Assembly (NCBI GenBank): GCA_963827655.1 | Contig: CAWHCF010000023.1 | Location: forward strand, 256,001-320,000 | DNA: 64,000 bases | Source: an uncultured Acidobacteriota bacterium | GTDB taxonomy: Bacteria > Acidobacteriota > UBA6911 | Direction: 5' to 3' | Shown here: piece by piece, positions 823 through 64,000 of the stretch | Numbering within the stretch: position 1 is the first letter of the stretch | How the letters are laid out: every line of letters begins with the position of its first letter | Translations under genes and position numbers: made by a program | Notes under the pieces: model-generated | The model's input: the letters and a program-made list of their open reading frames with translations, nothing else | Databases searched by the model: none | Told to the model about the DNA's origin: nothing

Positions 823-1245
823 ATGCTCGACTGGCTGCGCGCTAAGGAACCGCTCGCATGGTGGTTGATTGGTCTGTCTATCACGACCTTCGTGGGCAGC
901 TTGATTGCCGTTACCGTGCTGATCGTGCGCATGCCTGCCGACTACTTCACTCACATGAAAGAACCCGCCGATAGCTGGCGAAGCCGCCACCCCTTGATCC
1001 GTGGCGCCATTCTGGTTCTCAAAAACCTTCTGGGTTTCGTGCTGGTGCTGGCCGGCTTGATCATGTCGATTCCACCGATCCCCGGGCAGGGTGTTCTGAC
1101 TATCTTGATTGGTTTATCGCTCCTGAATTTTCCAGGAAAAAAGAACCTGGAACTGCGTATTGCAAGAGCCGCGCCGGTGAGAAACGCGATTGACTGGATT
1201 CGAGCAAAGTACCATCGTCCGCCGCTGCAAATTCCGGAGTCGTAG
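823..1245 (+). CDS. Small membrane protein, PGPGW-like family
   Basis: Hydrophobic helices and an IPGQGVLTILIGLSLLNFPGK motif. Confidence 0.7.
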   Translation: MLDWLRAKEPLAWWLIGLSITTFVGSLIAVTVLIVRMPADYFTHMKEPADSWRSRHPLIRGAILVLKNLLGFVLVLAGLIMSIPPIPGQGVLTILIGLSLLNFPGKKNLELRIARAAPVRNAIDWIRAKYHRPPLQIPES

Positions 1246-1248
1246 AAC

Positions 1249-1722
1249 ATGCGCAGCGTTTTTCAGGCTTTGGCACCCGCATTGGTGGCGTCTTTCATTT
1301 GGGCCGCTTGCTCCCGCCCTCAGCCCGCGGGTCCGACCGCCGCTGAACCCCCGTCCGCCCCGTCTCCCAAAGCGGAATCGGCGCCTGTTCCTCCTTTTCA
1401 TCGAAATATCAACCCCGGACAGCCCCTGCCTCAAGTGCTTTCGGCCGATGTTTTCCGTGATACGCCGGCCATAGCCGAGGTGTATCGCGCGGCGCGGCGT
1501 ATACCGGTGGTGCTGGCTCAGCAGCCTTGTTACTGCCATTGCGACCGTATGGGTCACGGCAGCCTGCTCGACTGCTTCGCAACGGATCATGGCGCCGGCT
1601 GAGATATCTGCATCAAGGAGGTCCTCCTTGCCGATCGCATGACGAAAGAGGGAGCCAATCCGACGCAAGTCCGCGAAGCCATTGTTCGTGGAGACTGGAG
1701 AGCCGAACCGCTACCGCGCTAG
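1249..1722 (+). CDS. PCYCGC/CYCXC-family lipoprotein, probable selenoprotein (TGA 1600-1602 read as Sec)
   Basis: Lipobox-like WAAC and PCYCHC-x-GH-x-SLLDCF-x3-HG motif. After TGA the frame continues D-I-C...REAIVRGDW to TAG at 1720-1722, giving UxxC where the family has CxxC. Confidence 0.8.
1609..1636 (+). promoter_or_regulatory. Putative bacterial SECIS hairpin
   Basis: CAAGGAG (1614-1620) - GTC loop - CTCCTTG (1624-1630) is a perfect 7-bp stem. The G-starting loop lies 18 nt after the TGA. Confidence 0.65.
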
Positions 1723-13600: not shown

Positions 13601-14042
13601 CCTTACGCTCCGCTTCCGTGGCCGGCACAGCTGCGGCAGTACGCGGGTCCGGAGCTCCCATCTTGATCCAGTCGATCAAGTCGGCGATCTGCTCGTCGGG
13701 CAGCTTGCCGTTGGGCGGCATCTTCAGATCGAGGTGCCTGTAGGAAATCGCCTGGATGAGAAGGCTTTTTTCCGGATCTCCGGGAACGATCGCCGGTCCT
13801 CGATCGCCTCCCTTCAGGAGACTGTCCCGAGCGTCCAACCGGAGGCCCCCCATCGGCGGTTTCGATGATGCGCTGTGGCAGAGATAGCACTTCTCAACCA
13901 GGACGGGGCGGATTTTCTTCTCGAAGAACTCCTCCTGCTGGGGATTTCCTGCGACTTCCACGTGCGAGTAAGGGAAAAGCAGGGCTGTGGCTAAAGCCAG
14001 TGCGGAAGCAAAGAATCCGAGTGCGGACCGAAGATTGCGCAT
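10673..14042 (-). CDS. Planctomycete cytochrome c + DUF1549 + DUF1553 (PSD1) protein, frameshift near 12506
   Basis: CYLCH heme motif, YGERWGRHWLD, CARCHDHKFDP, ARVMVNRVWKHHFG and THPELLDYLA. Two ORFs join at a CTGGGCGCT run. Confidence 0.85.
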
Positions 14043-14238
14043 GAGGCGATGTTTTTTTGTTACCAGCCGACTTCCGTTAGCGGTCAGTAGTATCCCACGA
14101 ATCAGCGTTCCAGGCGAGGCATAATAGGCCACCACCAAGCCGCGAAGACGCCAAGGAATACAAAGGCGACCCTAGCGCGGCCTGATGCCTTCGATCGCGA
14201 CAGACTGATGTATGATAGGGTAACCGAGAAGATTACAA

Positions 14239-14586
14239 GTGAACGATACGACTTCCACGATTAACGACAGAGCCCAGGAAATAATCGGCGAGATGGTTCG
14301 CCGCATCGTTGAGCGCTTCCACCCGGAGAAGATCATCCTCTTCGGCTCGTACGCTCGCGGGACTGCGGGACCGGATAGCGATGTGGACCTTCTGGTCGTG
14401 ATGCCGGTTTCGGGGTCGAGAAGGAAGCTCGCTGGCGAAATTCAAACGGCAATTTCCGGAATGGGTCTCCCGAAAGATGTGATCGTCGTTACTCCAGAAG
14501 AAGTCGAGCGCGATCGCAATCTTGTCGGCACAATCATTCATCCGGCCTTGCGCGAGGGGAAAGTGCTCCATGACCGTTCCGTCTGA
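14239..14586 (+). CDS. Minimal nucleotidyltransferase (MNT antitoxin-like)
   Basis: IILFGSYARG...DSDVDLLVV motif; 115 aa. Confidence 0.9.
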   Translation: MNDTTSTINDRAQEIIGEMVRRIVERFHPEKIILFGSYARGTAGPDSDVDLLVVMPVSGSRRKLAGEIQTAISGMGLPKDVIVVTPEEVERDRNLVGTIIHPALREGKVLHDRSV

Positions 14587-14620
14587 GCTTTTGGAAGCGG
14601 TCAGAACCTGGATCAAGAAC
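14570..14620 (+). pseudogene. Probable 5' remnant of a HEPN toxin gene
   Basis: An ATG overlapping the MNT 3' end gives MTVPSELLEAVRTWIK, resembling HEPN N-termini, then the frame runs into a repeat cluster. Confidence 0.45.
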
Positions 14621-14639
14621 ACACCGGGGCGTCCGTTAG

Positions 14640-14810
14640 GATGCTTCGCGTTTCTTGGTGTCTTCGAGTCTTCGTGGTTAGTGCGGCGGAACAAAACCAA
14701 CCACGAAGACACGAAGGCACGAAGAACCACTAAGAGCACTTTAGGTTACGCCTTCCGGGCCTCCTGCGTCGTAGCCGTAAGGTTGGTTTTGTTCTTGTCT
14801 TCGCGGTGAA
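14640..14810. repeat. Cluster of REP-like palindromes
   Basis: CTTCGCGTTTCTT..TGTCTTCG..TTAGTGCGGCGG.ACAAAACCAACCACGAAGAC is nearly identical to 22983-23048. Confidence 0.8.
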
Positions 14811-63420: not shown

Positions 63421-63656
63421 TGTGGCGACGGTCTCATCCGAGACTGTTGCAAAACTCGCCCGGTTCATGTGCGGACGGGCTATCAAGCCCGTCCGGCCTG
63501 TCGAGAGGAAAATGACCTTGTTAGAAATAAGTCCTTTAATCGCGTTTACTTGCGACGGGCCAATGGCCCGTCGCCACAGGATGCCCGGAAAGCGTCTAAG
63601 ACACTCGGCGGGGTCGCAGCTGAGTTTCGCCACGGCCTCTGATGACCTGCGCCACA
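63421..63656. mobile_element. MITE family B, copy 3
   Basis: TGTGGCG...GAGACTGTTGCAAAACTC / GAGTTTCGCCACGGCCTCTGATGACCTGCGCCACA, with the same two internal hairpins as copy 1. Confidence 0.8.
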
Positions 63657-63696
63657 GACCCAAGATCCAGGCGTTGACTGCGGTCGACCCCGGACA

Positions 63697-64000
63697 TTAT
63701 TCGCGTCCCGCTTTTGAATCATCCACATCGTGTACGAATTCCCAGCCGAAGCGCCCTTTGATGCACAGGTGGCCCCGCGTGACATCCGCATCCAGAGGAG
63801 AAGTGACCTTGACGATTCGGTTGTCCTGGACGTGCAAAGTCAGCGTGCAACCCACTCCACAGTAAGGACAAATGGTATCGGTTTGCGTCTGTTTCGATTC
63901 GTTCCAGGTTCCGGCGCGACGCATTTCAAATTCACTCATGAACATGAGCGCGCCGGTCGGACAGACCCCTATGCAGTTTCCGCAATAGACGCACGCCGAA
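63697..64000 (-). CDS. Fe-S protein resembling the N-terminal module of formate dehydrogenase alpha/NuoG (5' partial)
   Basis: CVYCGNCIGVCPTGAL followed by TICPYCGVGC...LCIKGRFG; the ORF ends after this domain. Confidence 0.85.
   Translation of the reverse strand, partial: SACVYCGNCIGVCPTGALMFMSEFEMRRAGTWNESKQTQTDTICPYCGVGCTLTLHVQDNRIVKVTSPLDADVTRGHLCIKGRFGWEFVHDVDDSKAGRE

Follow-up and report, generated by a model that had tools for sequence, protein, structure and literature searches.

A CYCXC-family gene with an in-frame TGA in an uncultured Acidobacteriota bacterium is probably a selenoprotein gene

The window analysed here, 64,000 nt of a contig from an uncultured Acidobacteriota bacterium, contains an open reading frame on the forward strand (1249-1602) that gene callers end at a TGA. 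Is this TGA a stop, or is it a selenocysteine (Sec) codon within a longer gene? An earlier note on this DNA, made from the letters alone, had argued for a hidden selenoprotein whose frame stays open for 39 more codons, and translation confirms that layout: the gene starts with the ATG at 1249-1251, the in-frame TGA at 1600-1602 is codon 118, and exactly 39 open codons (DICIKEV...EPLPR) follow in the same frame before the TAG at 1720-1722. The features of the locus, as we read it, are listed below.

1236..1239, forward strand: possible Shine-Dalgarno sequence GGAG, 9 nt 5' of the ATG, judged from reading the sequence
1249..1722, forward strand: probable full coding sequence of a CYCXC-family selenoprotein, 157 residues plus TAG with UGA-118 as Sec (translation, NF041379, PF13798 and full-length alignments)
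1249..1311, forward strand: putative signal sequence with a lipobox-like I-W-A-A-C end (Cys21), read from the translation
1525..1542, forward strand: P-C-Y-C-H-C motif (P93-C98), the family signature; P93, C94, Y95, C96 and C98 are invariant (n = 115)
1600..1602, forward strand: in-frame TGA, the putative Sec codon for U118 (first residue of U-D-I-C), opposite an invariant Cys of 114 other sequences
1603..1719, forward strand: the 39 codons after the putative Sec codon, with C121 and conserved helices (E124, R142, W150), conserved in full-length homologs
1614..1630, forward strand: candidate SECIS hairpin CAAGGAG / GUC / CUCCUUG, its stem 11 nt and its loop 18 nt after the UGA

The read-through protein scores over the cut-offs of two family models, which supports the PCYCxC identity proposed from the letters: 100.8 bits against a cut-off of 90 for NF041379 (NCBIfam "CYCXC family (seleno)protein", an equivalog), and 34.3 bits against 25 for PF13798 (Pfam, PCYCGC). 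A six-frame search of the genome with the family model gives a match of 96.8 bits with one TGA inside it, and 1690 homologs of the read-through protein were found at E<=0.001 in a database search. In a first alignment (A1, 24 sequences), all 19 full-length homologs have a Cys at position 118, within C-x-x-C, and their similarity extends past the TGA to the C-terminus, as the earlier note had expected of homologs. A larger alignment (A2) holds 115 out of 121 proteins (P0003, P0006, P0007, P0008, P0020 and P0048 were omitted as truncated or short): each of the 114 other sequences has a Cys opposite the TGA, where the window protein has U at 118, so that the TGA does sit at the first Cys of HG..CxxC. 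The invariant positions of A2 are P93, C94, Y95, C96, C98, H103, C109, H114, C118 (the Sec position), C121, E124, R142 and W150, and both motifs, P-C-Y-C-x-C and the downstream H-x(2,3)-[U/C]-x-x-C, are present in the window protein. This is the pattern sought in a bacterial selenoprotein gene: a UGA aligned with Cys in homologs, and conservation on both sides of it.

If the TGA were an ordinary stop, the gene would be naturally truncated or nonsense-mutated, and the downstream frame and the hairpin would be leftovers. That is how gene callers treat it, stopping at 1602, and there are close relatives with 117-aa entries in the database; four of these relatives (78-97% identity) terminate at residue 117 exactly in A1, as they should if they share the TGA and gene callers cut them there. 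But the TGA falls exactly at an invariant Cys, the invariant C121, E124, R142 and W150 are not expected of a leftover, and 28 other TGA-bearing genes of the clade keep both the sequence and the length of the 39-codon downstream part, with many synonymous changes among them. We consider an ordinary stop very improbable.

Cys homologs are the majority of the family, and Sec forms recur in it. Among 41 genomes (that of the window, G000, and 40 relatives), G000 and G002 are the only carriers, each with one in-frame TGA in a six-frame search. A survey of the phylum gave a family match in 92 out of 401 genomes (a tally that takes in the unpublished genome G063), 42 of them over the cut-off; four of the 42 (G000, G282, G260 and G055) have one TGA. 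The single in-frame TGA of G002, G282, G260 and G055 is at the same place as that of the window gene. 14 weaker PCYCGC-type matches, or more distant paralogs, also have one TGA each, with U at the homologous position of H-G-x-x-U-x-x-C. A metagenome scan added 61 loci, 59 of which could be scored (24 Sec forms and 35 Cys forms; the other two are too short or lack the motif). One of these contigs, L087, differs from the window by three synonymous and no amino-acid-changing differences in the next 35 codons after the TGA.

The same recurrence bears on whether a true TGC or TGT was turned into TGA by base calling or assembly. The assembly demonstrably has errors (see below), but the errors seen are indels and not substitutions, and the same TGA is found in G002, in L087 and 23 other metagenome loci, and, as it appears, in the four truncated database proteins of 78-97% identity, which end at the same residue. 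These are independent assemblies, and they speak for a genuine TGA, as the earlier note had assumed. Contigs from short-read runs (X1-X4) show no difference at the TGA (14601-14603 in the numbering of locus L037, which spans this part of the contig) among the differences listed; the bins that span 13690-14703 have zero depth in X4, and the contig comparison neither proves nor disproves the codon. An error at this codon is, in our view, scarcely credible.

Among the paralogs, G289 has four TGA-containing genes of PCYCGC type, an unusual local expansion of a selenoprotein gene: three (L077, L078 and L081) lie within 9 kb (G289:C1:2545756-2554631) and the fourth (L072) is at G289:C1:4395413-4395673.

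The candidate SECIS element has arms CAAGGAG (5', 1614-1620) and CTCCTTG (3', 1624-1630), with seven perfect pairs closing the loop GTC (1621-1623). The earlier note was right about the 7-bp stem and the loop starting with G, and its distance of 18 nt is that from the TGA to the loop; the stem itself starts at 11 nt. According to the legend of Fig. 2 in PMC13188914, bacterial SECIS elements have a loop of 3-9 nt, a stem of 4-16 bp, a G in the first two loop positions, a UGA-to-loop distance of 16-37 nt and an MFE <= -7.5 kcal/mol. The window hairpin agrees with the constraints quoted there (a loop of 3 nt starting with G and then U, a stem of 7 bp, 18 nt from UGA to loop), as the earlier note had claimed of a bacterial SECIS model; its energy in isolation, -7.5 kcal/mol, lies right at the limit of <= -7.5 kcal/mol.

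On its own, the window hairpin is statistically unremarkable. The 74-nt stretch around it (1597-1670) folds with z = +1.22, 182 out of 200 shuffles fold at least as well, and the MFE structure of this stretch does not use the hairpin. An Rfam scan of 1200-1800 gave no SECIS family match; it gave one microRNA match on the opposite strand, which we attribute to chance (E = 7.2, 15.8 bits against 55). The weakness of the hairpin when taken alone is a point in favour of an ordinary stop.

It is the comparison across TGA and Cys genes that lifts the hairpin above chance. In the genome loci, an equivalent hairpin is found in 19 out of 19 TGA genes (in each a perfect 6-7 bp hairpin starting 11-15 nt after the UGA) and in one out of 27 Cys genes; in the metagenome loci it is found in all 24 TGA genes (with a gap of 10-11 nt) and in two out of 35 Cys genes. 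Pooled, these are 43/43 TGA-bearing genes and 3/62 Cys genes, counts that, like the rank test, overstate independence because the genes are interrelated and are not independent trials. The three Cys genes with a hairpin are L054 (at a different offset), L097 and L117.

The stem codons are also conserved beyond what they encode. The Glu is GAG in 29/29 Sec genes of the CYCXC clade (27 distinct segments), with CTC for the first Leu in 28/29 and CTT for the second Leu in 28/29, while the downstream peptides of these genes differ at many positions; Cys genes use GAG for the same Glu in 25 out of 61 cases. The sole exception with CTG, in L060, is matched by a change of AAG to CAG on the other arm, a compensatory replacement of A-U by C-G, and in the hairpin of the other subfamily L074 has a G-C to C-G swap. 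The Cys gene L126 encodes the identical peptide K-E-V-L-L with other codons and without the hairpin, and L085 and L086, which are the nearest Cys forms, no longer have it. The stems of the two subfamilies are unrelated in sequence and occupy the same place (CAAGGAG/GNN/CUCCUUG versus GUCGCG/CGUGA/CGCGAU), and within the CYCXC clade the element is nearly invariant (CARGGAG-GNN-CUCCUUG). Covariation, conservation at synonymous sites and absence from Cys forms together point to selection on the hairpin as RNA, and such fixed synonymous sites are not expected if the hairpin is left over behind an ordinary stop.

Two side observations concern the hairpin. First, within 1615-1629, AAGGAGG in the 5' arm is a perfect Shine-Dalgarno-like sequence and CUCCUU in the 3' arm is anti-Shine-Dalgarno-like; the next in-frame ATG (1639) is 17 nt away, too distant for an obvious internal start, and the likeness may be a simple consequence of the K-E-V-L-L codons. 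Second, the metagenome gene L097 (family gene at about 1501-1944) is a UGC form whose SECIS hairpin is still complete and whose local peptide is that of the Sec gene in L096, and it looks like a very recent Sec/Cys switch.

The earlier note had also proposed a search for the sel genes. TGA is the commonest stop of long open frames in this genome, where it ends 1540 out of 2861, and the genetic code is therefore standard. The genome has selB (380.1 bits) and selD (384.3 bits), each as one open frame, and a tRNA-Sec (74.1 bits) with anticodon tca (ARAGORN). A second TGA-containing gene is that of a formate dehydrogenase, and selA lies near the window:

L082 = G000:C26:166295-169291: fdhA, formate dehydrogenase alpha subunit, full length, 1381 bits, one in-frame TGA (...RLUHGP...)
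L037 632-1997 = G000:C23:243631-244996: selA, about 11 kb upstream of the window, 398.5 bits over its main part

The fdhA hairpin, of 8 bp with the loop GUC, begins 11 nt past the UGA and has an energy of -13.4 kcal/mol. Its gap and loop equal those of the CYCXC hairpin, which fits one SelB reading both messages.

Of the four components, selA is the one that is frame-broken in the assembly: it is present, as the only copy over the cut-off in the genome, but is read in at least three frames, and it is one open frame in 19 out of 20 relatives. This raises a further explanation, that the gene in the window is a true Sec gene by descent in an organism whose selA has become a pseudogene; Sec synthesis would then be lost, UGA-118 would terminate, and the product would have 117 residues without C121 and the last helices. 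The essential genes rpoB (G000:C8:77700-81924) and rpoC (G000:C8:82147-86155) are, however, also split in the same assembly, into two frames each, which argues that indel errors are general in it. We compared the locus with contigs (not raw reads) of the four short-read runs, which come from four studies. The exact sites of two of the selA frame changes are L037:770 and L037:900: the base at 770 is missing in four out of four runs and that at 900 in two out of four (contigs of X1 and X4 keep it, a point for selA loss), and in silico removal of both bases turns selA into one open frame of 396 codons. Over L037 1379-2006, across the third junction, the assembly exceeds one X3 contig by a net 2 nt, which is the needed amount, by length arithmetic only. 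Further points against loss are the intact selB, selD and tRNA-Sec, an fdhA that keeps its single TGA and has no other stop, and the selA pieces themselves, which still reach their 398.5 bits, the indels being their only sign of decay. Because rpoB and rpoC are split likewise, the short-read contigs lack the offending bases and the X3 contig has the fitting length, we do not take the frame breaks as decay: they are most likely assembly indels, and selA is most likely intact in the organism. Loss of selA is thus an improbable explanation, if the least improbable of those that would deny the gene a Sec-containing product.

Indel errors of 1 nt seem to be scattered through the assembly, and any frameshift or pseudogene in this genome is doubtful until compared with reads. 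Some other irregularities were observed nearby. Two spots upstream of the window (L037 5182-5225 and 8011-8112) have a summed contig depth of up to ~300 and ~5000, compared with ~10 elsewhere, in all four soil runs and with many loose ends and joints, which suggests short repeated or widely shared elements; a tRNA scan found no tRNA genes in L037. RNA runs contained a fraction of only 0.05-0.11 of the sampled words. At the far end of the window, 63625-63909 on the reverse strand (G000:C23:319625-319909) has a weak match to formate dehydrogenase/molybdopterin oxidoreductase with one internal TAA, and just past the window end G000:C23:323798-325081 has a weak match of the same kind with one internal TGA; the two matches may reflect another Sec gene or additional breaks in the assembly.

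We return to the reading that we prefer: it is highly probable, as a statement on the identity of the gene and not on its function, that 1249-1722 is a genuine Sec-encoding gene of the CYCXC family, and the TGA at 1600-1602 almost certainly encodes Sec, which would give U118-x-x-C121. In the proposed mechanism, SelA would make Sec-tRNA(Sec) from Ser-tRNA(Sec) with selenophosphate supplied by SelD, the hairpin at 1614-1630 would act as a bacterial SECIS, and SelB carrying Sec-tRNA(Sec) would bind this hairpin, so that it brings Sec to the UGA at the A site of the ribosome.

The neighbours in the window encode a PIG-L protein, a PGPGW-like membrane protein, a glyoxalase-family protein, an MR/MLE enolase and a DHDPS-family protein. 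The ORF immediately upstream (823-1245, forward strand) encodes a membrane protein of 140 residues and ends 3 nt before the start codon of the CYCXC gene; its PGPGW match, with 22.3 bits, narrowly misses the cut-off of 23.3. The two genes may be co-transcribed, judging from their spacing, and the pairing is not seen in G002. No partner gene is common across lineages, either in the 64 flanking frames of 32 genome loci or in 82 out of 93 flanking frames of the metagenome loci (the 11 omitted are those of L113, L114, L119, L132, L134, L135 and L139). Metal-related neighbours (CopD, DUF4198, DUF305, a P-type ATPase and a DsbA-like protein) were considered as a functional lead and set aside: they are confined to one genome family, f41.

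The N-terminus of the protein starts with M-R-S..., is basic, and continues with a hydrophobic stretch and then I-W-A-A-C21-S; I-W-A-A-C21 resembles a lipobox. Close homologs keep the equivalent of Cys21, with A-C-S or G-C-S at the same place (A1). No twin-arginine motif is found in the protein sequence. From its N-terminus (MRSVFQALAPALVASFIWAAC) the protein looks like a lipoprotein: it would have a Sec-type signal peptide with a lipobox, be exported in an unfolded state and probably lipidated, and place a helical Cys/His-rich domain outside the cytoplasm.

An AlphaFold2 model built with the 115-sequence alignment is all helical over residues 60-157 (pLDDT 91-98), DSSP assigns helices and no strand, and U118 directly precedes a predicted helix (119-133). 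A thioredoxin-fold CxxC oxidoreductase was rejected, as the model has no central beta-sheet, although the local arrangement, with U118 before a helix, is alike. Searches with the model and with profiles gave no pointer to function: Foldseek gave no matches against the PDB at E<=0.001, and a profile search of PDB sequences gave no hits at E<=1. Matches from VIA-align wide (the best with Z 5.0, a designed zinc homodimer, the rest below 4) were rated as noise for helical models.

Redox-active CxxC centres usually have the nucleophile at the N-terminus of a helix, followed by x-x-C, and Sec usually replaces a catalytic rather than a structural Cys. Because U118 would stand at a helix N-terminus with x-x-C behind it, and because of this usual catalytic use of Sec, we tentatively favour a redox-active selenosulfide/dithiol centre as the most likely function, a reading drawn from the motif and the helix position alone. 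In this picture the other invariant residues C94, C96, C98, C109, H103 and H114 would be engaged in disulfides or make up a site for a structural or transported metal. A role in metal handling (e.g. of copper) is the second option, and a rather doubtful one. Unlikely as it is when taken as a whole, a joint reading can also be formulated: the Sec forms would be exported, all-helical, Cys/His-rich selenoproteins of a fold without a solved relative; their U-x-x-C, at a helix N-terminus, would serve selenol redox or copper/metal reactions in the envelope of soil bacteria; two subfamilies would have acquired or retained Sec, each having a SECIS of its own; and the CYCXC SECIS, with its Shine-Dalgarno-like and anti-Shine-Dalgarno-like arms, might also pace the ribosome.

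The main value of this gene is for annotation, with a clear comparative picture of the SECIS of the family as a by-product. Gene callers truncate the gene at codon 117, as they do in at least four database relatives, and so lose the second Cys of UxxC and two conserved helices. The CYCXC family is widespread, yet its members are still called 'hypothetical protein' and have no solved structure; the presence of Sec in the motif singles out U/C118 as the residue that does the chemistry, and thereby as the first target for biochemistry.

Several known systems resemble the window gene to different degrees. The periplasmic domain of CcmH (PDB 2hl7) is a small, helical, exported CXXC thiol-disulfide domain, and a helical, exported domain is predicted for the window protein too; the structural match to 2hl7_A (Z 3.6, rmsd 4.2 over 66 residues) is within the noise range of the tool for helical models, a profile search of PDB sequences shows no sequence relation, and we see a possible functional analogy only. 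The PCYCGC lipoproteins of Firmicutes (PF13798) share with the window protein the Pfam family and a lipobox Cys (putative in the window protein) followed by several conserved Cys, but they are Cys forms with the PCYCGC motif, unlike the Sec form of the window. One of them, AOT13_14730 of Parageobacillus thermoglucosidasius, is given there as a PCYCGC lipoprotein of unknown function whose gene adjoins that of an Fe3+ binding protein (PMC13068155); the window gene has no such neighbour. The PCYCGC-type Sec genes examined in the same phylum (L068-L081) differ from the window gene in their hairpin (GUCGCG/CGUGA/CGCGAU, 14-15 nt after the UGA).

In its layout, the element is like the SECIS of formate dehydrogenases: a stem-loop that follows closely on the UGA inside the coding region and has a small loop starting with G-U. 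Compared with fdhA of the same genome, the 11-nt gap and the GUC loop are identical, whereas the CYCXC stem is the shorter and less stable of the two (7 bp, -7.5 kcal/mol, versus 8 bp, -13.4 kcal/mol) and the two stem sequences are unrelated. The minimal upper stem-loop of E. coli fdhF reportedly has the same spacing of 11 nt.

The closest system is the family of NF041379 (OS_HP4_CYCXC) itself. The earlier note had allowed that Sec-containing members might already be catalogued, and so they are: besides NF041379, the tables of two reviews list a "hypothetical protein OS_HP4 / CYCXC family protein" with UxxC and one Sec, and these tables, in the parts available, give no function, SECIS description or localisation for it. 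OS_HP stands for 'Olavius symbiont's hypothetical protein', and the main text of the 2007 paper on the Olavius symbionts (PMC1976440) names OS_HP1-3 only. Both motifs of the family (P-C-Y-C-x-C and H-G-x-x-U/C-x-x-C) recur in the window gene, together with one Sec and mostly Cys homologs; there is no difference of substance, the window member coming from a soil or rhizosphere bacterium. CYCXC is thus an already catalogued selenoprotein family of which the window gene is one more ordinary member, and it leaves existing knowledge of selenocysteine decoding as it stands.
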